Assembly (NCBI GenBank): GCA_964291235.2
Contig: OZ219815.1
Coordinates: 480,001 to 544,000 of the forward strand
Source of the DNA: Vicinamibacteria bacterium
Lineage (GTDB): Bacteria; Acidobacteriota; Vicinamibacteria; Marinacidobacterales; Marinacidobacteraceae
Reading direction: 5' to 3'
DNA: 64,000 nucleotides
How positions within the stretch are numbered: the first letter of the stretch is position 1; each line of letters begins with the position of its first letter. Shown piece by piece: positions 1 to 10,364 of the stretch. The notes below the pieces were generated by a model, which did no database searches, had not been told where the DNA came from, and saw only the letters and a list, made by a program, of their open reading frames with translations. A program made the position numbers and the translations under genes.

Positions 1-1604
1 ATCAGGATCAGGAAGAGACACAGCGCGATCCCGAAGACCACGAGCGGCCAGCGCATGTCGCCGCCGACGATCCCCTGGGACAGGAGCGCCATGAGGCCCG
101 CCTGGGGCGCCGGCAGTTCTTCGCCGCCGACTCCGATGCCGCCGGCGGCGATGTCCCCCTCGTGGAGCAGCATCATCGGCAGCACCAGGAAGAACGACGC
201 GAAGATCACCCCGATGATCTCCGCCCACTCCATGCGGAAGGGCGTGCCGCCGAGGATCTGGCCCACTTTCAGGTCCTGCAGCATGTCCCCGGCGACCGCG
301 CAGGCGCAGCAGACGACCGCGGCGACTCCCAGCACCGCCGCCACGCCTGCGGTCCCGGTGACCCCCAGGAAGGTCATCAGCAGCGCCGCGAGCAGCAGCG
401 TCGAGATGGTGAGGCCGGAAACCGGATTCGAAGAACTCCCGATCGTGCCGACGAGATAGCCGGCCACCGCCGAGAAGAAGAAGCCGGCGACGATCATCAC
501 GATCGCCGAACCGAGCGCGCCGAGCGGCTGCCCGGTGTAGTAGTTGTAGAGGAAGAACGTCGGGATGATCAGCGCCACCACCCCGGCGGCTGTCCAACTG
601 AACGGGATGTCGCGGTCTTTTTCATCCTGGCCCGCCGGATGGCCGTGCTTCAGCTCGCCGATGGACCGCTTGAGTCCCTCGCCGAGGGACTTCCGCATCC
701 GGAGCAGGGTCCAGACCGCACCGGCGATCATCGCCCCCACCGCGATCGGCCGCACGAGTTCGGCCCACACCACACTGCTGACCGCGGTCCAGTCGGCGCC
801 CGCCGCCGCCAGCTTGCCGGCGTCGGCGAACTCCGGATTGAAGAAGAGGACCGCCGGGATCATGAACCACCAGGCGAAGACCCCGCCGGAGAAGGTGAGC
901 GCCGCAAGCCGGAAACCGATGATGTAACCGACCCCGAGGTAGGCGGGCGAGGCGGCCGGAGTGGAAAAAGGCAAGACCCCCGGCTGTGCCGCCGCGCCGA
1001 AGGACTGGCCCCCGACGGTGACCGAGCCCTGGAAGGAGCCGTAGCCGAGAGCGCCGGAAATGCGGTCGGTGAAGAGCTGGATGCCCTTCGAGTTCTTGAG
1101 GACCTCGATGAGCGCGCCCACCCCCATCATCTGAAAGAGCAGCCGGCCACCGCTGGCGCCCTTACCGGCGCGGTGGATCTCGGCGGCGGCAACCGACTCG
1201 GGGAACGGCAGCTCGGGATCGGTGACCATGCTCCGCCGCAGGATGACGACGAACAGGATCCCGAGCAGCCCGCCGACCAGCATCAGCAGGGTGCTCTCGA
1301 GGTAGTTGAACTCCTCCCAGGCGCCCGCCATCAGGAACGCCGGCAGGGTGAAGATCGCCCCCGCGGCCAGCGCCTCTCCCACCGAAGCGGTGGTGCGGGC
1401 GATGTTCTCTTCGAGGAGGCTGCCCTTGAAGAGTCCCCGGATGACGACCATGGAAACGACCGCGGCGGGGAAGGTCGCCGCGACCGTCTGGCCGGCCCGG
1501 ATGCCGAGGTAGGCGTTCGCCGCTCCCAGCACGACGGCCATGAAGAGGCCGAGGAGAAGAGCCCGGAGCGTGAACTCGCGGGTGCTGCCGGATCCGTTCG
1601 CCAT
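1..1604 (-). CDS. OPT family oligopeptide transporter (3' end runs off the window)
   Basis: Manual minus-strand translation from ATG at 1604 (GGAGG RBS upstream): MANGSGSTREFTLRALLLGLFMAVVLGAANAYLGIRAGQTVAATFPAAVVSM...LEENIARTTASVGEALAAGAIFTLPAF...ELPFPESVAAAEI, typical of OPT. Absent from the ORF track because its stop lies outside the window. Confidence 0.9.
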   Translation of the reverse strand, partial: MANGSGSTREFTLRALLLGLFMAVVLGAANAYLGIRAGQTVAATFPAAVVSMVVIRGLFKGSLLEENIARTTASVGEALAAGAIFTLPAFLMAGAWEEFNYLESTLLMLVGGLLGILFVVILRRSMVTDPELPFPESVAAAEIHRAGKGASGGRLLFQMMGVGALIEVLKNSKGIQLFTDRISGALGYGSFQGSVTVGGQSFGAAAQPGVLPFSTPAASPAYLGVGYIIGFRLAALTFSGGVFAWWFMIPAVLFFNPEFADAGKLAAAGADWTAVSSVVWAELVRPIAVGAMIAGAVWTLLRMRKSLGEGLKRSIGELKHGHPAGQDEKDRDIPFSWTAAGVVALIIPTFFLYNYYTGQPLGALGSAIVMIVAGFFFSAVAGYLVGTIGSSSNPVSGLTISTLLLAALLMTFLGVTGTAGVAAVLGVAAVVCCACAVAGDMLQDLKVGQILGGTPFRMEWAEIIGVIFASFFLVLPMMLLHEGDIAAGGIGVGGEELPAPQAGLMALLSQGIVGGDMRWPLVVFGIALCLFLIL

Positions 1605-1704
1605 GGGGCCTCCTAGAGTCGGGGTAGCCGGCCCCGCGTTATATCACCGAGCGCGAATTCCCTGTCGCCCTGCCCGTCCCGAGTCCTTAGACTTCGGCGC
1701 CTTC

Positions 1705-4700
1705 GTGCACCACCGGAACGGCGAACTCTTTTTCGCGCCCACCGACCTCAGCCGGTTCCTCGCCTGCCGGCATCTGACGACTCTCTCCCGTGCCGTCGCG
1801 CTCGGGGAGACTTCCCCGCCGCCGGTCTTCGAGGATCCGCGGCTGGAGGCGCTGATTGAAGCCGGAAGGCGGCACGAGGCCAGAATCCTCGAGCGGTACC
1901 AGACGGAGGGCCGGAGCGTCGAGACGATCGCGGATTCTGGCAGGTACGCCGAACGGCATGAGCGGACCCTCGATGCCATGCGCCGCGGGGTGGAGGTGAT
2001 CTACCAGGGAAGGCTCGGTGCCGGAACCTGGTCGGGCTCTCCCGACTTCCTGATCTGGGTGGGCCGACCCAGCGCCCTCGGAGACTGGTCCTACGAGGTG
2101 GTGGACGCCAAGCTCGCCACCATGCCCAAGGCCGACGCGGTACTTCAGGTCGCCGTCTATTCGAGGCTGCTTGCGAAGGTCCAGGGCACAGCCCCCGCTC
2201 AAATGCACCTGGAACTCGGTCGCGACGAGGGACGCGAGAGCGTCCGGGTCACGGACTTCGCCGCGTTCGAACGCAGCCTCAGGCGGCAGTTCGACGAGCA
2301 CTGCGCCGCGCCACCCGCCACCTATCCGGAGCCGGTCGACCATTGCCCTCGGTGCGAATGGAACGGGGCCTGCCAGGAACGGCGCCGGAGGGACGACCAC
2401 CTGTCGCTGGTCGCGAATTCCACCCGCCACCAGCACCGCAGGCTTGAAACACGTGGGGTCACGACCCTGACCGGTCTCGCCCGGCTTGCTCTCCCGCTGG
2501 ACCCGCCGCTTCGGCGTGTGGCGCCGGCCGTCCTCCAGCGCATCCAGCGGCAGGCCCGGGCGCAGCTCACCGGGCGCGAACGGGGACGGCCATTCCACAA
2601 ACTGATCCTGCCGCCGGAGGAAGGACGCGGGCTGCTGAAACTCCCCGAGCCGTGCGAGGGAGACCTGTTTTTTGACATCGAGAGCTCCCGGCCCGGTGTG
2701 GACGATGCGCTCGAATACCTGTTCGGCTTCGTGGATGGGGATGGCCGCTACGAGGAGCGCTGGGCCTTCCGCCGCGATGACGAACGCCGGATGTTCGAGG
2801 ACTTCATGGATCTGGTAGCGGACCGGCGGGAGAAGTTCCCGGATCTCCACATCTTCCACTACGGCGGCTACGAGACAGGGGCCCTGAAACGGCTGATGAG
2901 CCGTTACGCCACCCGCGAGGACGCGATGGACGGCTTGCTGCGGCGAGGGGTGTTCGTGGACCTGCTGCAGGTGGTCCGGCAGGGCGTCGTGGCGTCGGTG
3001 GAGAGCTACTCGATCAAGGAGATGGAGCCGTTCTACGGCTTTGATCGGGGGCAGGAACTACCCGAAGCCGGCCGGGCGCTCGCCCGCATGGACGCTCTGC
3101 TCGATTCCGGGGACGCTGCCGGAGTGCCGCCGGAGGACCGCGAGATCATCCGCCGCTACAACCGGGAGGATTGTCTTTCCACCCTGGCGCTCCACGGCTG
3201 GCTCGAAGAGCGTCGGCGGGAACTGACGGACCGCATCGGGCCGCGGGACCGGCCCGTCGTGGAAATCAGGCCGGAGGATGAACAGACGCAAACGGAGGCG
3301 GCGGCGCGGGTATCGGAACTCGTCGCGCGGCTCGGAGCAGGTCCCGCCGAAGAGGCGGGGGCGCGGCGGCTGCTGGGCTACCTGCTCGACTACTACCGGC
3401 GGGAGGACAAATCGAAGTGGTGGGAGTACTTCCGGGTGAAGGATCTCGACGCCCAGGAACTCGTCGAAGATTCCGCGCCGCTGGGCGGGATCGAGTTTGA
3501 TCGGGAACTCGGACGGGAACAGCGGTCCGTACTGCACCGTTACCGGTTCCCGCTACAGGAGCACCGCATCAAGGTCGGAGGGAAGCCAGAGGACTTCGCC
3601 ACCGGCAAATCGTCGGGCGAGGTCTTCGAGATCTCGGAAAGAACCCTGACCCTGAAGCGCAGCAGCACGGCCCAGCAGCAACCCCATCCGCGCGCGCTGG
3701 TGCCGGCCGAACGGGTGCGGCCGGCGCCCAAGCCCGGATCGCTGTTCCGCCTCGGCGAGGCGGTCGCGGAGGCCGGGTTCGCCGATGACAGTCCGCGCCG
3801 GGCTGCATTCGACCTCCTTCGCCGGATCCCGCCGCGCGGCCGCATCGCCGGAGAACCCCTGGTCCGCCCGGGCGAGGACATCATCGCCGGCGCTCGGCGC
3901 CTCGCACTCGATCTCGACGGGGGAGTGCTGCCGATCCAGGGACCGCCCGGCAGCGGCAAGACCTACACCGGCGCCCGCGTCATCACCGCGCTGTTGGCGG
4001 CCGGGCGGAGGGTCGGCGTAACGGCGCAGAGCCATCGCGTCATCACAAACCTGCTCGACAGCGTGTGCTCGGCGGCGACGGAGGAAGGAGTCGTCTTCCG
4101 AGGCATCCAGGGGGTGCGGGAGACGGGTTGCGACGATCCCCGGATCAAGGTCCTGGCAGGTTCCTCCAAGCTAACGGCGGACGCCGCGACGGACCCCGGC
4201 GTCCACCTGATCGCGGGCACCGCCTGGGTCTGGGCCCGGGACGACATGACCGATTCCGTGGACGTGCTGGTCGTGGATGAAGCCGGGCAGTTCGCACTGG
4301 CGGACGCGCTTGCCTCCGCCTCGGCGGCGGACAGCCTGATTCTGCTCGGCGACCCGGCCCAACTCGACCAGGTGACCCAGGGCGACCACCCGGAGGGGTC
4401 CGACGTTTCCGCGCTCGACCATCTCCTCGGCGAGCACCAGACGATGCCGCCCGACCGCGGCCTCTTTCTCGAAGCCACATGGCGGATGCACCCGGACATC
4501 TGCGGTTTCACCTCCGAGCAGTTCTACGAGGACCGGTTGGCAGCGCGCCCGGGACTGGAGCGACAGCGGGTCGAGGGCGGGCCGCTACCGGGCGCCGGGC
4601 TTCGGTTCGTCCCCGTCGCACACGAAGGCAACCAGACGGAGTCGCCAGAGGAGGCCGAACGGATCGCCGACCTGGTGGACGGCCTGCTCGAAGGCGCGTC

Positions 4701-5082
4701 CTGGACGGACGACCGGGGCGTCGCGCGTCGGGTTACCTCCAACGACATCCTCGTCGTCGTTCCCTATAACGATCAGCTTGCCTTGCTGGGCCGTCGGCTC
4801 GGGGACCGGGTGCGCGGGGTCGGGACCGTGGACAAGTTCCAGGGCCAGGAGGCCCCCGTCGTGTTCTTCTCGATGGCAACCTCGACCCCGGAGGCGGCCC
4901 CGCGGGGGATGGACTTCCTCTATTCGTCGCACCGGCTGAACGTGGCGACATCGCGCGCCCGCTGCCTCGCGGTCGTGGTCGCGAGCCCGGAACTCTTCTT
5001 TCCCGAGTGCAAGACCCCGCACCAGATGCGGCTCGCCAACGCGTTCTGCCGTTTCCGCGAGCTTGCCGACGTGGTCCAGTAG
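1705..5082 (+). CDS. TM0106-family RecB/Cas4-like nuclease fused to RNase H-like and DNA2/NAM7-like SF1 helicase domains
   Basis: APTDLSRFLACRH N-terminus, PDFL...YEVVDAK nuclease motif, Cys cluster HCPRCEWNGAC, FFDIES, Walker A IQGPPGSGKT, VVDEAGQ, GTVDKFQGQE, RLNVATSRA. Start taken as GTG 1705 within ORF 1540..5082. Confidence 0.9.
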   Translation: MHHRNGELFFAPTDLSRFLACRHLTTLSRAVALGETSPPPVFEDPRLEALIEAGRRHEARILERYQTEGRSVETIADSGRYAERHERTLDAMRRGVEVIYQGRLGAGTWSGSPDFLIWVGRPSALGDWSYEVVDAKLATMPKADAVLQVAVYSRLLAKVQGTAPAQMHLELGRDEGRESVRVTDFAAFERSLRRQFDEHCAAPPATYPEPVDHCPRCEWNGACQERRRRDDHLSLVANSTRHQHRRLETRGVTTLTGLARLALPLDPPLRRVAPAVLQRIQRQARAQLTGRERGRPFHKLILPPEEGRGLLKLPEPCEGDLFFDIESSRPGVDDALEYLFGFVDGDGRYEERWAFRRDDERRMFEDFMDLVADRREKFPDLHIFHYGGYETGALKRLMSRYATREDAMDGLLRRGVFVDLLQVVRQGVVASVESYSIKEMEPFYGFDRGQELPEAGRALARMDALLDSGDAAGVPPEDREIIRRYNREDCLSTLALHGWLEERRRELTDRIGPRDRPVVEIRPEDEQTQTEAAARVSELVARLGAGPAEEAGARRLLGYLLDYYRREDKSKWWEYFRVKDLDAQELVEDSAPLGGIEFDRELGREQRSVLHRYRFPLQEHRIKVGGKPEDFATGKSSGEVFEISERTLTLKRSSTAQQQPHPRALVPAERVRPAPKPGSLFRLGEAVAEAGFADDSPRRAAFDLLRRIPPRGRIAGEPLVRPGEDIIAGARRLALDLDGGVLPIQGPPGSGKTYTGARVITALLAAGRRVGVTAQSHRVITNLLDSVCSAATEEGVVFRGIQGVRETGCDDPRIKVLAGSSKLTADAATDPGVHLIAGTAWVWARDDMTDSVDVLVVDEAGQFALADALASASAADSLILLGDPAQLDQVTQGDHPEGSDVSALDHLLGEHQTMPPDRGLFLEATWRMHPDICGFTSEQFYEDRLAARPGLERQRVEGGPLPGAGLRFVPVAHEGNQTESPEEAERIADLVDGLLEGASWTDDRGVARRVTSNDILVVVPYNDQLALLGRRLGDRVRGVGTVDKFQGQEAPVVFFSMATSTPEAAPRGMDFLYSSHRLNVATSRARCLAVVVASPELFFPECKTPHQMRLANAFCRFRELADVVQ

Positions 5083-5165: not shown

Positions 5166-5192
5166 TGCCGGCCTGAAGGCCGGCGGTCCCTA
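5166..5192 (-). repeat. Solo REP-like palindrome starting at the RLP stop codon
   Basis: Minus strand reads TAG-GGACC-GCCGGCCT-TC-AGGCCGGC-A, similar to the arms of the elements at 9762 and 56242. It lies between convergent genes. Confidence 0.55.
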
Positions 5193-6758
5193 CTCCGCCC
5201 GCATGGGGCGGTCGCGGTCGTGGTCCACGACGCAGAAGAATCCGAAGGGCTCCTCGGTCTCATTCCGCAACTGGTGGGACTCCAGAGGGCCGACGCAGGC
5301 GACATCGAGGTGCCGGAGCGGCAGGCGCCGATCTCCGAGGAGCAGGACCCCTTCCCCCCGGGCCCCGATGACGACGTGGGTATGGACGTGCTTCTCGAGG
5401 CTGGTGTGACCTCCGGGTTCCACCTCGAAGTAGCGCAGGTCCGAGCGCGTCCGTTCTCCGAACTTCCCCACCAGTTCCACCCGGCGCACTCCCCGGAAGG
5501 CGAGATCCCCGGCGTCCTTGTAGGGAGAACTGTCCCGGCCCTCCCAGTTCCAGTCCCGCCGGAAGGCGAGCCGCCGGGGCTCCGGCAGCGCAGGCTGCCG
5601 CGGGTCCGAGGGCTCGATCGACACCTCCGGGTGAACCTCTCGAATCCTCTCGAGGATCTCGCGGGTTCCCGCCTCGATTCCCTCGGGATGACCGAGCAGA
5701 GCGCCGCCGATCAGCAACACGGTGTCGGGGCCGTAGGTCTGACAGACGCGGCCGACGTCCGCCGGTCCCATTCCGCCGGCGGGGGCCGGCCACGCCGGAC
5801 CGAGCGCGCCGAGCGGCTCGCGGAGACGCTCGGTGATCTCCGCACATGCGGCTCGGGTGTAGGCGAAGCGGCCACCGGCGTCCGGAAACACCGAGATGTC
5901 GGCGCCCGCGAGCCGGAACAGGGTGCCGAGAAGGACCCCGTGGGCCACCCCGTGTTCCGGCGCGTGGGTATAGACCCCGGTCAGGGACGGATGCGCCATG
6001 AAGAGCAGCGGATAACTCTCCGCCAGGGCGCGCATCGTGTCGAGGCCGGTGATCATCGGGCAGATGAGAACTCCGGGAAGTCCGGCCTCGGCAACGAACT
6101 CGACGTAACGTTCGAGTTCGTCCGCCGGGGCGCCGGCGTGCGGGAGGTAGAGGCACCGGCCGCCGCTGGCCTGATTGCCCCGGTCCACCGCTGCCGCGCA
6201 GGCCAGGACGCGGCGCCGAAAAGACTCGAAGTCGTCCGTCAGGTTCTGGTCGTCCTTCACCAGGTCGCCGCCGCCCCGGGCGAACGCCTCCCCGATGGAC
6301 GCCAGCTCCGAAACGCTTGAGCCCTGGGGCTTGAGCGCGGTAGCCAGCAGGGGCCGTCCCAGGACCCCGCACCTCCGCCGCACTCCCTCCACGCCGTGGT
6401 TGGGGCCGGCCAGGCTATCGAGCAACGGTCGCGGCGGTTGCAGGTCCACCAGCCGCACCCGGCCGTACATCGGCGCGTTGCCGATCGCGACCGCCAGCAA
6501 TCCGAATAGATCCGAAGCGAGGTCGGCCGCGTAGCTGATGGTGACGCGGCTCGCACCCGGAACATCCGGATCGGGCGTCACCGCCTCGACCCGGCCGACG
6601 ATTTCGTCCCGGATCTTCCCGGGCGGAATGAGCGCCTCCGGGATTTCCACGGTCTGTTCGATGGCGATGAGGCGGGCCAGGTCCTCCGGCGCGGCGGCGT
6701 CCGGCCGGACCCGGTAGACGGCCGTGGCCCGATCGGAATCCGGCTGCGGGCCGACCAC
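5190..6758 (-). CDS. RuBisCO-like protein (form IV, DeepYkr-like) fused to a C-terminal cupin (putative methylthioxylulose-5-P methylsulfurylase)
   Basis: RLP motifs IAIEQTVE, ATALKPQG, GGDLVKDDQNL, MAHPSLTG, LFRLAGAD, GGRF, PAPAGGM, LLIGG. Cupin tail WEG...PYK...LRYFEVEPGGHTSLEKHVHTH...HQLRN...FGFFCVVDHDRDRP. Confidence 0.88.
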   Translation of the reverse strand: MVGPQPDSDRATAVYRVRPDAAAPEDLARLIAIEQTVEIPEALIPPGKIRDEIVGRVEAVTPDPDVPGASRVTISYAADLASDLFGLLAVAIGNAPMYGRVRLVDLQPPRPLLDSLAGPNHGVEGVRRRCGVLGRPLLATALKPQGSSVSELASIGEAFARGGGDLVKDDQNLTDDFESFRRRVLACAAAVDRGNQASGGRCLYLPHAGAPADELERYVEFVAEAGLPGVLICPMITGLDTMRALAESYPLLFMAHPSLTGVYTHAPEHGVAHGVLLGTLFRLAGADISVFPDAGGRFAYTRAACAEITERLREPLGALGPAWPAPAGGMGPADVGRVCQTYGPDTVLLIGGALLGHPEGIEAGTREILERIREVHPEVSIEPSDPRQPALPEPRRLAFRRDWNWEGRDSSPYKDAGDLAFRGVRRVELVGKFGERTRSDLRYFEVEPGGHTSLEKHVHTHVVIGARGEGVLLLGDRRLPLRHLDVACVGPLESHQLRNETEEPFGFFCVVDHDRDRPMRAE

Positions 6759-6766
6759 TTCGGAAC

Positions 6767-7831
6767 TCAGCGGTGCCGCCGCGACCGGCGCGGACCGCTC
6801 TCGCCGAGTCGAAGCTCGGTGTCGGCGGTGAGATCGGGGCCGGCGATCTCACCGCGGAGGAGCGCCAGGTGGCCGGCGGCGGCGATCATGGCGGCATTGT
6901 CGGTCGAGAGGGCGATGCTCGGGTAGAACACCGGCAATCCCCGCTCCTGGCCGAGCGCCTGGAAGTTGGCGCGCAGGGCCGAGTTGGCGGCGACTCCTCC
7001 CGTCAGCAGCACCGCCTGCGCTTCGAACATGCGCAGCGCACGATCCACCGAACGCCGAAGGGCGCGGACGACCGCCGACTGAAAGCTGGCGGCCAGGTCC
7101 CGCAGGTCTTCCCGGTCGAACGGGTCTTGCTCATCAGCCAGCGGCTCGATGCCCTCCTGCTCGATGAGCCGGAGGACCTGTGTCTTGAGACCCGAGAAAC
7201 TGAAATCGAGTTTCGCCCCGTCCGAAAAGTGTGGGAGAGAAAACAGGTGACGGCGCGCATCGCCCCTTTGCGCCAGGCGGTCGAGGATCGGCCCTCCCGG
7301 ATAACCGAGCCCGAGCCGCTTGGCGAGCTTGTCGTACGCCTCGCCAGCCGCGTCGTCGCGCGTCTTGCCGAGCAGCCGATAGGAACTCTCGGCTTCAAGC
7401 AGGAAGAGGCTCGTGTGCCCTCCGGAGACCACCAGCGCGAGCGCCGGGTGGGGCACGTCCCCGCCCTCCAGATAGCAGGCGCGAATGTGGCCCTCGATGT
7501 GGTCCACGCCGACCAGGGGAATGCCGCGGGCGAAAGCGAACGCCTTGGCGAAGGAGACCCCGGCGAGCAGGGCCCCGATCAGGCCGGGGCCGTTCGTCAC
7601 CGCGACCGCCTCGACATCATCCACCTCGATACCCGCCTTCTGGAGCGCCTGCCGCACCACGGGCGAAAGGTTGAGGAGGTGTTGCCGGGAGGCAATCTCG
7701 GGGACCACCCCGCCGAAAGCGGCGTGCTGGGCGACCTGGGAGGAGACGACGTTCGAGAGGATGCGCCGGCCGTCCTCGACCACGGCGGCCGAGGTCTCGT
7801 CGCAGGAAGTCTCGATCCCGAGGATGAGCAT
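6767..7831 (-). CDS. tsaD: tRNA N6-adenosine threonylcarbamoyltransferase
   Basis: ILGIETSCDETSAA, GGVVPEIASRQH, GPGLIGAL, HIEGH, LVVSGGHT, TRDDAAGEAYDK, FSFSGLKT, GGVAANSALR, TDNAAMIA. Confidence 0.97.
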   Translation of the reverse strand: MLILGIETSCDETSAAVVEDGRRILSNVVSSQVAQHAAFGGVVPEIASRQHLLNLSPVVRQALQKAGIEVDDVEAVAVTNGPGLIGALLAGVSFAKAFAFARGIPLVGVDHIEGHIRACYLEGGDVPHPALALVVSGGHTSLFLLEAESSYRLLGKTRDDAAGEAYDKLAKRLGLGYPGGPILDRLAQRGDARRHLFSLPHFSDGAKLDFSFSGLKTQVLRLIEQEGIEPLADEQDPFDREDLRDLAASFQSAVVRALRRSVDRALRMFEAQAVLLTGGVAANSALRANFQALGQERGLPVFYPSIALSTDNAAMIAAAGHLALLRGEIAGPDLTADTELRLGESGPRRSRRHR

Positions 7832-7917
7832 GGGTTCAGGGGACGATGCCAAACAGCCAGTCGCGAGCGTGCTGCGTCAATGTGCAACCACACTCCGCTG
7901 GCATCGTAGATCCCGCA

Positions 7918-8625
7918 TCAAGAGTAGTGCGCTTCCTGTAACTGGAGTTGATCCGTAGCGTCGATGACATCGGGCTCGTCCCACACCTCGTCCTGCAGAA
8001 GGAACGTGTGACTGTTGGTGTGGCGGGCGTACTTGGAACGGTCGCGAACGACGCCGACCGGGATCAGGGCCGCCCGCACCACACGGTAATTCTCGTCGAA
8101 CAGCACCGCGGCAAGGATGTCGAACCCGTTGAGATCGCGGATTGGCGACAGAAGCCGAGAAGGATGGCGACCAGTGAGTCGGCGTCCCTTGATCTGGTAG
8201 CGCTTGCCATCCCTGTCTCTCGCATCGAGCGCCTTCCCGGGGTCCAATTCCCACCCGTAGGCGGCGCAGAACAGGTACTCCGCGAGATCGCCGGTCGGAT
8301 TGTTCTCCGTTCTCAGCACTCTGCGCGCGCGCAGTTCTTTCAAGGCCCCAACGTGGCAAGCGAGGAGTTCAGCAATCGACTTCTCCTTCGGGGTCGTTCG
8401 GTCTTCGCGCAGCAGCACGACGCTATCCGTCTGCGGAGTGCCTTCGGTGAGGCGGGAAAGCGCATCGGTGCGCTTCCGCAACTCCACCATGCGCTGGATC
8501 CGGTCGAACCGCTCCGTCAACGCGCGCCGAGCCTCGGCTTCCATGGAGCGGTCGTTCGCCTTGGCCTCGGCCTTCAGCGCCTGGATCACATGATCGTCCA
8601 GATTTCGAATCGTAAGGCTGCCCAT
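7918..8625 (-). CDS. FitA-like ribbon-helix-helix protein fused to a putative PD-(D/E)xK-like nuclease (DUF6998-like)
   Basis: N-terminal MGSLTIRNLDDHVIQALKAEAKANDRSMEAEARRAL...TDSVVLLREDR (FitA/Arc-like). C-terminal NNPTGDLAEYLFC...LDARDRDGKRYQIKGRR (E...D...QxK pattern). GGAGG RBS before ATG 8625; locally lower GC. Confidence 0.7.
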   Translation of the reverse strand: MGSLTIRNLDDHVIQALKAEAKANDRSMEAEARRALTERFDRIQRMVELRKRTDALSRLTEGTPQTDSVVLLREDRTTPKEKSIAELLACHVGALKELRARRVLRTENNPTGDLAEYLFCAAYGWELDPGKALDARDRDGKRYQIKGRRLTGRHPSRLLSPIRDLNGFDILAAVLFDENYRVVRAALIPVGVVRDRSKYARHTNSHTFLLQDEVWDEPDVIDATDQLQLQEAHYS

Positions 8626-8673
8626 GCCAACGCCTCCACAGCGTTCTGATTGCGTGATGCTAGCACATTGCAC

Positions 8674-9726
8674 TCATCGCGCGTGCAGAGCGGCAAGACC
8701 TCCCAGCGAAACGGTGAACGGCGGGTGAGCGATGCCTCTCTCGGTGACGATTGCGGTGATGTAGCGAGCCGGGGTGACGTCGAACGCGGGATTCCAGACC
8801 GGGACCCCGTCGGGCGCCACTCGCTGACCGGCGATCGCGATGACTTCGTGCGGACTCCGTTCCTCGATGGGAATATCCGCTCCTCGGGGCGTTTCGAGGT
8901 CCACGCTCGAAAAAGGAGCCGCGACCACGAACGGCACGGCGTGCTCCTTCGCGAGGACGGCTGCCTGATACGTGCCGATCTTGTTCGCGGTATCGCCGTT
9001 CGCGGCAATGCGGTCGGCGCCCACGACCACGGCGTCCACCTCGCCGCCGGCGAGCAGGGAACCGACCATCCCGTCGGTGATCAGGGTCACGGGGATCCGG
9101 TCTGCCATGAGTTCCCACGCGGTGAGACGGGCGCCCTGAAGATACGGGCGGGTTTCGGGAGCGAACACCCGGACCGGACGGCCGGACTCCACTGCCGCCC
9201 GGACGATGCCGAGCGCCGTCCCGTAACCCGACGTCGCGAGGCTCCCCGCGTTGCAGTGGGTGAGGACTCGCGCCGGTCCCTCGCCGGGTAGCAGGCTGGC
9301 GCCGAGCGCGCCGAGGCGCCGGTTCGCCTGCAGATCCTCGGCGGCGATGCAGTCCGCCTCGTCCTCAAGGCCGCTGACGATCGCTTCGGGGGCGGCCAAG
9401 AGGAGCGATTCCAACCGGGATCGCATCCGGTCCAGGGCGTTTCGCAGGTTTACCGCCGTGGGGCGCGTGTCCAGCAGACCCGCCGCCAACCCATCGAAGA
9501 GAGCGGTATCCGGCTTGGTCCCCGAATTGCGACCGAATCCGATCACCACCGCGTAGGCAGCCGCGATCCCGATGGCCGGAGCCCCGCGAATCGCCATTTC
9601 CTCGATGGCGTCTCCCACCTGGTGCGCTTCCGCGCACTCGATCCACACCTCCTCGAACGGGAGCCGGCGCTGGTCCAGCAGGTGGAGAACCCGCCGCTCG
9701 GAATCCCACCGGAACGGACGGACCAT
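8674..9726 (-). CDS. mtnA: S-methyl-5-thioribose-1-phosphate isomerase
   Basis: LLDQRRLP, IRGAPAIG, TRPTAVNL, LTHCNAGSLATSGYGTALG, ETRPYLQGARLTAWEL, GADRIAANGDTANKIGTY, NPAFDVTP. Real start ATG 9726 within ORF 8674..10266. Confidence 0.95.
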   Translation of the reverse strand: MVRPFRWDSERRVLHLLDQRRLPFEEVWIECAEAHQVGDAIEEMAIRGAPAIGIAAAYAVVIGFGRNSGTKPDTALFDGLAAGLLDTRPTAVNLRNALDRMRSRLESLLLAAPEAIVSGLEDEADCIAAEDLQANRRLGALGASLLPGEGPARVLTHCNAGSLATSGYGTALGIVRAAVESGRPVRVFAPETRPYLQGARLTAWELMADRIPVTLITDGMVGSLLAGGEVDAVVVGADRIAANGDTANKIGTYQAAVLAKEHAVPFVVAAPFSSVDLETPRGADIPIEERSPHEVIAIAGQRVAPDGVPVWNPAFDVTPARYITAIVTERGIAHPPFTVSLGGLAALHAR

Positions 9727-9761
9727 GGGCGCACCGTAGCAGCGTACCGGGGTAGGGGCCC

Positions 9762-9987
9762 AGGAGCGCCGGCCTCCGGCCGGCATCGCCGAGCGAAGCG
9801 AGGCGAAACTCCCATCGCCAATCCTCCAGGATGGCGCCGCAGCCCGGCAGGGTGGCGCCGCGCCACAGCCACTCCCGGGTTGTAGGGCGTTACGCCGTCC
9901 CCGTTTGGGTGAGCGCCATCGAGGATGACCAGGTCTGGGAGTTTCGCGGCCTGCGGCCGCGATGCCGGTCTGGAGACCGGCGCTCCT
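9762..9987. mobile_element. REPIN/MITE-like non-autonomous element, copy 1 (~52-nt inverted arms around a ~120-nt core)
   Basis: Left arm AGGAGCGCCGGCCTCCGGCCGGCATCGCC...GCGAAACTCCC; right arm GGGAGTTTCGC...GCGATGCCGGTCTGGAGACCGGCGCTCCT. Homologous to 56242..56463. Confidence 0.8.
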
Positions 9988-9990
9988 AAC

Positions 9991-10043
9991 TGAGTCCGAC
10001 TGGTGCGGAACGGGATTCCCCGTTCCGCACCAGATCGGGCTCA
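9991..10043 (-). terminator. Long hairpin directly after atpE, probable terminator or stabiliser
   Basis: CTGGTGCGGAACGGG-ATTC-CCCGTTCCGCACCAG perfect 15-bp stem, extended by TGAGTCCGA/TCGGGCTCA. No clear U-tract. Confidence 0.6.
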
Positions 10044-10364
10044 GCCGTTCCAGAGAACGAAGAAGATGATGAGCGCGGTAACGAAGGCGTAGATGACCAG
10101 CGACTCGATCAGCACCAGGCCGAGGAGCAGCGAGAAGCGGATCTGCGGGGCGGCGCCCGGGTTCCGGGCGAGGCTCTCGCAGGCGCCGACCACGGCGCGC
10201 CCCTGCGCGGTAGCGCCGAAGGCGGCGGCGATGGCGATCGCGCCACCCGCCGAAATCAGCGCCCACTGACTGACAACCGGATCCCAGCTTCCCTGGGCGA
10301 AAACCGGGGAAGCGGCGAGAACGCCGAAGACGGCCAGCAGGGTCGTCCGAAACTTGTTGGACAC
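10041..10364 (-). CDS. atpE: F0 ATP synthase subunit c with a signal-like N-terminal extension
   Basis: GATAQGRAVVGACESLARNPGA...GLVLIESLVIY; directly downstream of atpB. Confidence 0.93.
   Translation of the reverse strand: MSNKFRTTLLAVFGVLAASPVFAQGSWDPVVSQWALISAGGAIAIAAAFGATAQGRAVVGACESLARNPGAAPQIRFSLLLGLVLIESLVIYAFVTALIIFFVLWNG

Follow-up and report, generated by a model that had tools for sequence, protein, structure and literature searches.

The closest described systems come from Rhodospirillum rubrum and Rhodopseudomonas palustris. In R. rubrum, the RuBisCO-like protein (RLP) Rru_A1998, a DeepYkr RLP, is the MTRu-1-P 1,3-isomerase of the MTA-isoprenoid shunt (excerpts of PMC4958253 and PMC5893883), the cupin Rru_A2000 is named the MTXu-5P sulfurylase (excerpt of PMC4958253), and the reaction is described as glutathione-mediated (excerpt of PMC5893883). 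For R. palustris, genetics show that RPA2169 (RLP1) and RPA2170 both act in methanethiol release from MTA (excerpt of PMC5893883). RPA2169 and the cupin RPA2170 are separate adjacent genes, unlike the fusion that we report here from the window, meaning the whole stretch of 64,000 nucleotides that was analyzed. The entry steps in R. palustris are MtnP and MtnA. The host of the window, which the sequence-only reading had taken for a probable acidobacterium, is indeed a marine member of the Acidobacteriota (class Vicinamibacteria), and its fusion matches the R. rubrum pair both in the two protein families and in their order, with the RLP preceding the cupin. However, Rru_A1998 and Rru_A2000 are separate proteins, while the source organism has one polypeptide with a Pro-rich linker. 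A precedent for consecutive enzymes in one polypeptide is MtnBD of Tetrahymena, which joins two steps of methionine salvage, although these are other enzymes of another pathway branch in a eukaryote (excerpt of PMC3698126). We propose that the fusion is probably a bifunctional shunt enzyme, an RLP isomerase joined to a cupin methylsulfurylase, that yields DXP and methanethiol.

The fusion is encoded on the minus strand by one continuous ORF (5190..6758; 522 aa, GTG start). Its form IV RuBisCO-like domain (residues 1–375, minus strand, 5634..6758) is defined by PF00016, the match to 3qfw and Foldseek, and the RuBisCO_large profile (PF00016) itself covers residues 124–366 with 73.5 bits against a Pfam cut-off of 30.1. 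The linker (residues 376–396, minus strand, 5571..5633), the stretch separating the RLP and cupin profile matches, reads SIEPSDPRQPALPEPRRLAFR and has Pro at 6 of its 21 residues. The Rru_A2000-type cupin domain (residues 397–522 plus stop codon, minus strand, 5190..5570) is defined by PDB phmmer; the Pfam model Cupin_2 matches residues 443–511 with 26.2 bits, slightly below its cut-off of 27.2. The three cupin motifs named in the sequence-only reading are all found in the translation (WNWEGRDSSPYK, LRYFEVEPGGHTSLEKHVHTHV and FFCVVDHDRDRP), as are the single frame and the two domains that it had described. The single fused frame is genuine and not an assembly artefact. Specifically, 25 of the 28 family genomes, the source genome among them, carry a full-length fused match free of internal stops, and positions 5189–6973 are covered by contigs of three sequencing runs (X1, X2 and X4), which are not independent of one another since they belong to one study and possibly to the source sample. 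These contigs show neither differences nor indels in the ORF and, in the linker, where a stop in the reads would have counted against the earlier claim, neither a stop nor an indel. The AF2 model of the fusion has a pLDDT of 83.5, with values of 57–74 across residues 381–440, and a complex prediction of the RLP half with the cupin half from both alignments gave a score of 0.00, which speaks neither for nor against the substrate channelling that the sequence-only reading had considered possible.

The best PDB phmmer match of the RLP half is 3qfw (E 2.3e-63, 217.8 bits), followed by 4nas (163.3 bits) and the enolase 2oek (144.6 bits), with 2qyg (R. palustris rlp2; 89.6 bits) and 1tel (87.4 bits) the lowest of those cited. 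Foldseek likewise places 3qfw first (TMt 0.93, rmsd 1.9 Å), with an identity of about 36% over the aligned columns. The title of 3qfw is "Rubisco-like protein from Rhodopseudomonas palustris" and that of 2qyg specifies rlp2; in R. palustris, RLP1 is the one RLP of the DeepYkr clade and RLP2 the one Photo RLP (excerpt of PMC5893883). From its title, and because 2qyg already accounts for rlp2, we identify 3qfw as RLP1 (RPA2169), which makes RLP1 the best match of the RLP half in both sequence and fold. The RuBisCO_large fold of this half is seen in Pfam, in the AF2 model and by Foldseek, and no other RuBisCO_large match occurs in the source genome. Judged by these comparisons, the RLP half groups with DeepYkr representatives and not with YkrW or Photo RLPs, the two assignments that would have spoken against the sequence-only reading.

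The MtnW/YkrW enolases of Bacillus and Geobacillus (2zvi, 2oek) have the same fold and also act after MtnA, in methionine salvage, and the top-scoring NCBIfam model on the fusion is in fact the MtnW enolase PRK09549. Acireductone dioxygenase is a cupin too. The fusion could on these grounds be read as part of classical methionine salvage, combining an MtnW-type enolase with a cupin that resembles acireductone dioxygenase, but we consider this extremely improbable. PRK09549 reaches only 190.8 bits against a cut-off of 409 and the second MtnW model, TIGR03332, 148.2 against 513.6, far below these equivalog cut-offs, and the enolase structures themselves match with only 137.5–144.6 bits. Directly following the conserved Gly (G93-N94), the fusion and 3qfw both have Asn, but the MtnW-titled 4nas has Lys, a residue that we take to be the base of the MtnW enolase. 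Where MtnW/YkrW goes with MtnX, the RLP half has a cupin as its partner, and this cupin is most similar to 3ibm, 3jzv and 3kgz (E-values of 7.2e-31, 6.6e-21 and 3.1e-18, respectively), with no methionine-salvage dioxygenase among its 34 PDB phmmer matches. Finally, the source genome contains no MtnB.

Of the structures matched by the cupin half, 3jzv is that of the R. rubrum methylsulfurylase Rru_A2000, and the match spans residues 12–133 of the 136-residue cupin half. The motifs E-x-H-x-H-x-H, H-Q and F-x-C-x-V-x(3)-R-D-x-P align identically with 3jzv, 3ibm and 3kgz, and 17 fused homologues share, without exception, residues E455, H457, H459, H461, H495, Q496, C509, R515 and D516. By its sequence the cupin half is thus a relative of the Rru_A2000-type MTXu-5-P methylsulfurylase, as first suggested. 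In the RLP half, K143, K168-D169-D170-Q171, H256, G328-G329 and G351-G352 are invariant in the same 17 homologues. The residue after K168-D169-D170, at what we take to be the third metal-ligand position of RuBisCO, presumably Glu there, is Gln in the source fusion and in 31 of 53 fused rows, and His in 3qfw and in all 27 motif-bearing unfused adjacent rows. It should be noted that this Gln-for-His change adjoins the carbamylated Lys and separates most of the fused clade from the characterized type.

The sequence-only reading had left open how rare the architecture is, and it proves to be common: both domains occur in 119 of the best 120 protein clusters, and 43 of the best 79 species-level loci, from at least seven phyla, are fused. 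In a tree of the RLP domain (96 rows, no named YkrW or Photo sequences among them), a single clade (SH-aLRT 95) unites 49 fused with 10 RLP-only rows, and its sister consists of 21 unfused adjacent RLP and cupin pairs (SH-aLRT 99), including those of Rhodovulum, Rhodoplanes, Rhodospirillales and Meiothermus. The fused proteins are therefore a sister clade of the characterized type, that is, of unfused pairs such as that of R. rubrum, and not a branch nested within it. Within the order, the family that carries the fusion lacks it in three of 28 genomes, two of which consist of a single contig, and the other two families lack it in all 27. Most likely, the family acquired the gene by lateral transfer in an already fused form. 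A search of the main texts of openly accessible papers found no published description of the fusion and no assay of any fused-clade member. Because the fusion, though genuine, is common among uncultured bacteria, we regard it as a variant of a known pathway. It is a natural "Rosetta stone", an independent link that ties a DeepYkr-type RLP to an Rru_A2000-type cupin in one functional unit, and with it the oxygen-independent MTA-isoprenoid shunt, which is known from a few purple bacteria, would reach into at least seven phyla through their uncultured members.

In the mechanism that we put forward, the MtnA product 5-methylthioribulose-1-phosphate would be converted by the RLP domain to 1-methylthioxylulose-5-phosphate, from which the cupin domain, aided by a thiol, would then strip the methylthio group. 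The products would be 1-deoxyxylulose-5-phosphate (DXP), which would enter the MEP pathway, and methanethiol, which would be returned to methionine via O-acetylhomoserine sulfhydrylase. This scheme is the MTA-isoprenoid shunt of R. rubrum and R. palustris, which starts from MTA, a by-product formed when S-adenosylmethionine is consumed, except that a linker of 20–40 residues connects the two signature enzymes; the substrates and products of the fusion are inferred. For pathway engineering, a single polypeptide capable of making DXP out of a methylthio-sugar phosphate would be useful. The source genome, which is 90.3% complete so that single absences from it are not proof, agrees in part with the shunt as known enzyme families would run it. 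MtnA is present, together with the O-acetylhomoserine sulfhydrylase MetY (TIGR01326, 574.4 bits vs a cut-off of 495.1), Dxr (445.5 vs 315.7) and IspH (224.7 vs 187.85), and no MtnB or class II aldolase candidate occurs that might divert MTRu-1-P. However, MtnN and MtnK have no match in it, and MtnP is above cut-off in none of the 28 genomes of the family, while MtnP matches at E ≤ 1e-40 occur in 7/8 and 18/19 genomes of the sister families. SpeE has only a sub-cut-off match (87 bits vs 249.55) and glutathione synthetase GshB (TIGR01380) has none; if the absence of GshB is real, the thiol would be one other than glutathione. Also counting against a shunt enzyme are KDDQ in place of the KDDH of the characterized type and an identity of only about 36–40% between the fused clade and the alphaproteobacterial pairs.

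With MtnP, MtnN and MtnK all missing from the matches, this genome has no known enzyme for the supply of MTR-1-P, and another route to it has to be considered, possibly a TRZ/ATZ-type deaminase followed by purine nucleoside phosphorylase (PNP). The PNP of the source genome scores 264.8 bits (cut-off 218), and a TRZ/ATZ amidohydrolase scores 331.4 bits with the 5'-deoxyadenosine deaminase model (under its cut-off of 522) and 261.5 bits with the MTA/SAH deaminase model (under 779). As family-specific replacements of MtnP these two give no differential signal, the deaminase being found in 55/55 and PNP in 53/55 genomes of the order, and they remain candidates. The same enzymes raise the question of whether the fusion acts mainly on another product of the MtnA type, for example 5-deoxyribulose-1-phosphate, which would arise from 5'-deoxyadenosine, a radical-SAM by-product, and would give DXP directly by an RLP-type 1,3-isomerization, the cupin serving another leaving group or a side activity. 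The family lacks MtnP yet retains PNP and an amidohydrolase with 5'-deoxyadenosine deaminase among its best models, and the Gln beside the carbamylated Lys in most of the fused clade would also suit another substrate. We nevertheless think this unlikely, as neither the deaminase nor PNP tracks the fusion in the order, and the cupin is still fused and retains every motif shared with Rru_A2000, an argument that the reaction still has to include the loss of a methylthio (or similar) group.

If the fusion is a bifunctional shunt enzyme, as we favor, the weight of its DXP in the MEP pathway has to be considered, particularly as Dxs is above cut-off in none of the 55 genomes of the order and Dxr is found in 54 of them. 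In the source genome the best match to the Dxs model TIGR00204 has 69.7 bits (cut-off 466), the three weak matches being PDH E1 beta, a fused E1 alpha/beta and transketolase. By tblastn, an acidobacterial Dxs query yields nothing beyond matches of 68.6 and 57.4 bits, and the usual xseB-ispA-dxs site reads xseA-xseB-ispA-nadK with no dxs. Among possible replacements, the ispA neighborhood offers nothing new, and the fused PDH-E1 alpha/beta (767 aa, ~730 bp from ispH) was rejected as a Dxs substitute, its orthologue being found in 152 of 251 genomes of the phylum, Dxs-positive and Dxs-negative alike. AceE, proposed as a Dxs substitute in six cultured acidobacteria (PMC5462960), was also set aside: neither the source genome nor six further genomes listed for the class have a match to it, and it is present in many Dxs-positive genomes.

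It could thus be argued that most or all of the DXP in this organism comes from the fusion in place of the missing Dxs, with the shunt as the trunk route into the MEP pathway. Dxs itself is missing, AceE is not found, Dxr and IspH are present, HMG-CoA reductase is absent from the source genome, and the same idea has been raised for five Dxs-less species with both shunt enzymes (excerpt of PMC10663253). Dxs is, however, missing order-wide, whereas the fusion is confined to one of the three families of the order, and hence it does not explain the loss of Dxs; the fusion-free, Dxs-less relatives require that another source of DXP exists in the clade. In addition, one MTA per C5 unit would be a heavy SAM cost, and no bulk MTA-forming enzyme was identified. 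A trunk role is, in our estimation, very improbable. We also regard as distinctly improbable the broader proposal that, in a family where Dxs, AceE, MtnP and GshB were not found, the laterally acquired fusion is an important, perhaps the principal, DXP source, fed through MtnA by non-canonical MTR-1-P or by 5-deoxyribose-1-P (deaminase plus PNP) and using a non-glutathione thiol.

The bifunctional shunt enzyme that we propose would depend on MtnA, and the sequence-only reading had described the fusion as clustered with mtnA. The gene for this S-methyl-5-thioribose-1-phosphate isomerase (minus strand, 8674..9726; TIGR00512, 427.1 bits vs 279; PF01008, 258.4 bits) is the 3' part of an ORF at 8674..10266 and most likely starts at M181 (coordinate 9726), the 180 open codons upstream having no match. 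It is indeed co-oriented with the fusion, its stop lying 1.9 kb upstream of the fusion start, but two genes lie between them. One is tsaD (minus strand, 6767..7852; TIGR03723, 403.4 bits, cut-off 296.1), a housekeeping gene for a tRNA t6A transferase subunit, the stop of which is 8 nt from the fusion start. The other (minus strand, 7918..8673) encodes a FitA-like RHH domain (PF22513, 56.1 bits) with an unassigned C-terminal part and has no NCBIfam match. The order mtnA-tsaD-fusion is retained in three genus relatives (L039, L048 and L050), where mtnA directly abuts tsaD and the RHH gene is missing; among acidobacterial loci, the RHH gene is found in L015, L019 and L040, and it resembles an insertion that separates mtnA from tsaD. 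The clustering is limited to the source genus and one sister genus, with tsaD inside. Outside the family, mtnA lies beside the fusion in only one of 33 non-acidobacterial fused loci (L056), and apart from this mtnA no conserved neighbor was found among 62 ORFs flanking 12 fused loci in other phyla. Co-occurrence with MtnA was rejected as a signal tied to the fusion, MtnA being present in 53 of the 55 genomes of the order regardless of the fusion. In three genus relatives (G021, G031 and G032), the fusion has a weak MtnB-like gene (59–68 bits, below the cut-off) as its immediate neighbor.

The RLP-cupin gene in the window is genuine and conserved. It occupies 5190..6758 on the minus strand as a 522-codon ORF, in the product of which Pfam RuBisCO_large covers residues 124-366 (73.5 bits) and Cupin_2 covers residues 443-511 at 26.2 bits, slightly below its 27.2 cut-off. 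The linker between the RuBisCO-like protein (RLP) and cupin profiles is SIEPSDPRQPALPEPRRLAFR, in which Pro makes up six of 21 residues. The sequence-only reading had described a single continuous frame with named motifs in each half, and every one of those motifs was found in the translation. It had also held that a stop in the linker would undo the fusion, and there is none: of the 28 genomes in the window's family, 25 have a full-length, stop-free match, whereas the two sister families, with 27 genomes, have none. This conservation across independent assemblies is the main argument for a genuine single frame. Contigs from three runs also span 5189-6973 and agree with the ORF throughout, without any indel, and since these runs belong to one study, possibly on the source sample itself, we give them little weight.

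The RLP half is best matched in the PDB by 3qfw (217.8 bits), followed by 4nas (163.3 bits), the Geobacillus enolase 2oek (144.6) and R. palustris rlp2, 2qyg (89.6), and 3qfw is also the top structural match (TMt 0.93, rmsd 1.9 Å) of the AlphaFold2 model of the fusion (pLDDT 83.5, pTM 0.77, with pLDDT 57-74 at residues 381-440). The title of 3qfw is ‘Rubisco-like protein from Rhodopseudomonas palustris’, and since that organism is described as having two RLPs, RLP1 (DeepYkr) and RLP2 (Photo) (PMC5893883), and 2qyg is titled rlp2, 3qfw is by exclusion RLP1. Membership of the YkrW or Photo groups, which would have spoken against the proposed function, is therefore not what these scores indicate, and an MtnW enolase was rejected on the NCBIfam models, which score far below their cut-offs (190.8 versus 409 and 148.2 versus 513.6). 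At G93-N94 the fusion has Asn, as does 3qfw, and the MtnW-titled 4nas has Lys at the equivalent position, which we take to be the base of the enolase.

The cupin half matches 3ibm (7.2e-31), 3jzv, labeled ‘Rru_A2000’ (6.6e-21), and 3kgz (3.1e-18), and has the His/Glu, HQ and Cys-RD-P motifs in common with all three, so that the kinship with the R. rubrum methylsulfurylase suspected from sequence holds. In R. rubrum, Rru_A2000 is described as an MTXu-5P sulfurylase of the cupin type and Rru_A1998 as a DeepYkr RLP (PMC4958253), the same two protein types as the halves of the fusion. When 17 fused homologues are aligned, neither half shows any variation at its key residues. We propose that the fusion is bifunctional and, as the most likely activity, that it would perform both signature steps of the MTA-isoprenoid shunt, conversion of MTRu-1-P to MTXu-5-P and release of methanethiol to give DXP.

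The RLP-cupin fusion is common in metagenomes. Among the 120 top-ranked protein clusters (53-100% identity), 119 contain both Pfam domains, and the fused clusters carry as source names only ‘RuBisCO large subunit C-terminal-like domain-containing protein’ or ‘ribulose-bisphosphate carboxylase large chain’; no published account of an RLP-cupin fusion was found in our literature search. In the species-level genome collection a relative is encoded by 584 of 600 pattern matches among the matches listed, and the best 79 of these at least 584 relatives, classed by running our own profiles for the RLP and the cupin over stop-to-stop frames, comprise 43 fused loci, 25 whose cupin is a separate gene immediately downstream and 11 that have just the RLP. 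These 43 fused loci lie in Pseudomonadota (14), Acidobacteriota (10), Planctomycetota (9), Fibrobacterota (3) and Thermodesulfobacteriota, Bacteroidota and Hydrogenedentota (one each), with four unplaced. Every one is from a MAG, and the two isolates among the best 79 loci, Meiothermus hypogaeus and Rhodovulum sp. PH10, both have separate genes.

A quick IQ-TREE analysis of the RLP domain (96 rows, with the partial rows L053, L078, L084 and L107 excluded and two row pairs being identical duplicates of the same genomes) places 49 fused and 10 RLP-only rows in a single clade (SH-aLRT 95). Its sister (SH-aLRT 99) consists of one RLP-only row and 21 unfused adjacent pairs, the latter from Alpha- and Betaproteobacteria, Meiothermus and two acidobacteria, and one more fused row, L109, lies on a long branch outside the main fused clade. 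The simplest reading of this topology would be that the two genes fused once, long ago, and that the product then spread laterally. The fused rows from acidobacteria, 20 in number, group together (SH-aLRT 100) within a 45-row clade (SH-aLRT 99) of mostly Gammaproteobacteria, and the remaining RLPs of acidobacteria, which lack the fusion and are 37-45% identical, fall elsewhere in the tree. Constraining all 31 acidobacterial rows, a group defined by taxonomy, to one clade costs 192 log-likelihood units (p-AU 8.45e-05) in a test chosen post hoc with the tree already seen. Most simply, then, the gene would have been transferred laterally, already fused, into the window's acidobacterial family.

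According to profile searches, the source genome (3.45 Mb, two contigs, 90.3% complete) encodes MtnA, the fusion as its sole RuBisCO_large match, MetY, Dxr and IspH, and at this completeness has no match for MtnB, MtnN, MtnK, GshB or HMG-CoA reductase. MtnP is above cut-off in none of the 28 genomes of the family and is found at E<=1e-40 in 7/8 and 18/19 genomes of the sister families (25/27). Of the pathway genes expected alongside the fusion, those for MtnA, MetY and the MEP enzymes Dxr and IspH are present, and those for the usual suppliers of MTR-1-P were not found. We suggest as candidate suppliers a purine nucleoside phosphorylase and a TRZ/ATZ amidohydrolase, the latter with sub-cut-off matches in the source genome to 5'-deoxyadenosine and MTA deaminase models; an entry route by deaminase and phosphorylase is known in other systems. 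In the source genome the phosphorylase is encoded at C2:841404-842258 and the amidohydrolase at C1:361572-362990. Since both candidates are order-wide, we only infer this entry.

Dxs is above cut-off in 0/55 genomes of the order, and Dxr is present in 54/55. In a sample of the phylum, Dxs is found in 146 of 251 genomes and in none of the 22 from the window's class. The order counts include one unpublished genome (G003) and the phylum counts three (G077, G102 and G200), and no claim depends on one alone. In the source genome the absence was confirmed by tblastn with an acidobacterial Dxs query, and the usual place of dxs reads xseA-xseB-ispA-nadK with no dxs gene. Loss of Dxs in acidobacteria is already known in part, dxs having been noted as missing in six cultured members (PMC5462960). 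Judged by sequence, the fusion is the only recognisable putative DXP-forming enzyme of the source genome. It cannot account for the loss, however, because it is confined to one family and Dxs is missing order-wide. Two other candidates for replacing Dxs, AceE and a fused pyruvate/2-oxoacid dehydrogenase E1 alpha/beta protein, were rejected, as the presence of neither complements Dxs loss. The fused E1 gene (C2:830618-834708 of the source genome, 767 aa) is divergent and about 730 bp from ispH, an adjacency that is probably without meaning because orthologues of the fused E1 gene occur widely across the phylum.

The sequence-only reading had placed the fusion in a cluster with mtnA. The latter (8674..9726, minus strand; TIGR00512 427.1 bits versus a 279 cut-off) does lie upstream on the same strand, but the two are not direct neighbours, being separated by two unrelated genes, tsaD (6767..7852, minus), with its stop 8 nt from the fusion start, and a gene (7918..8673, minus) with an N-terminal FitA-like RHH domain and 190 C-terminal residues that have no assignment. 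The order mtnA-tsaD-fusion is kept within the window's genus, whole in L039, L048 and L050 and partial in L014, L018 and L021, and the RHH gene is an insertion in only some members. Some contigs, from four runs, jump 7842-8398, and given their short flanks and the 90% likeness setting they may come from relatives. Elsewhere the mtnA-fusion distance is 2.4 kb in one sister genus (G014) and 5 kb to >200 kb in other genera; outside the family mtnA adjoins the fusion in one locus only (L056), and no neighbour is shared among the 62 ORFs that flank 12 fused loci. MtnA itself is found in 53/55 genomes of the order and kept in all three families, and is therefore older there than the fusion. Convergent with the fusion is a helicase-nuclease gene (1540..5082, plus; 1180 aa) with PD-(D/E)XK nuclease, RNase_H_2-like and SF1 helicase (AAA_11/AAA_12) regions, and in three genus relatives its place, directly beside the fusion, is taken by a weakly MtnB-like gene of the class II aldolase family.

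Two minor features concern the junction of the domains. In the unfused adjacent pairs of the species-level set (L088-L116) the cupin is in the reading frame of the RLP in 25/25 cases, an excess that probably reflects a bias in how tblastn ranks its hits, and the same arrangement is seen in 0/3 adjacent pairs from a separate genome search. One stop codon alone lies between the two genes in 19 of these 25, which shows that a single point mutation could create or undo the fusion. The linker of 21 of the 43 fused loci (among L054-L117) carries a Cys motif, mostly S-[AS]-C-E-[LW]-P, which is found in none of the ten acidobacterial fused loci and in neither the tails nor the heads of the unfused pairs. 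Its hosts are Planctomycetota, Fibrobacterota, Desulfuromonas, Hydrogenedentota and some Gammaproteobacteria, in which this Cys might serve as an intramolecular thiol.
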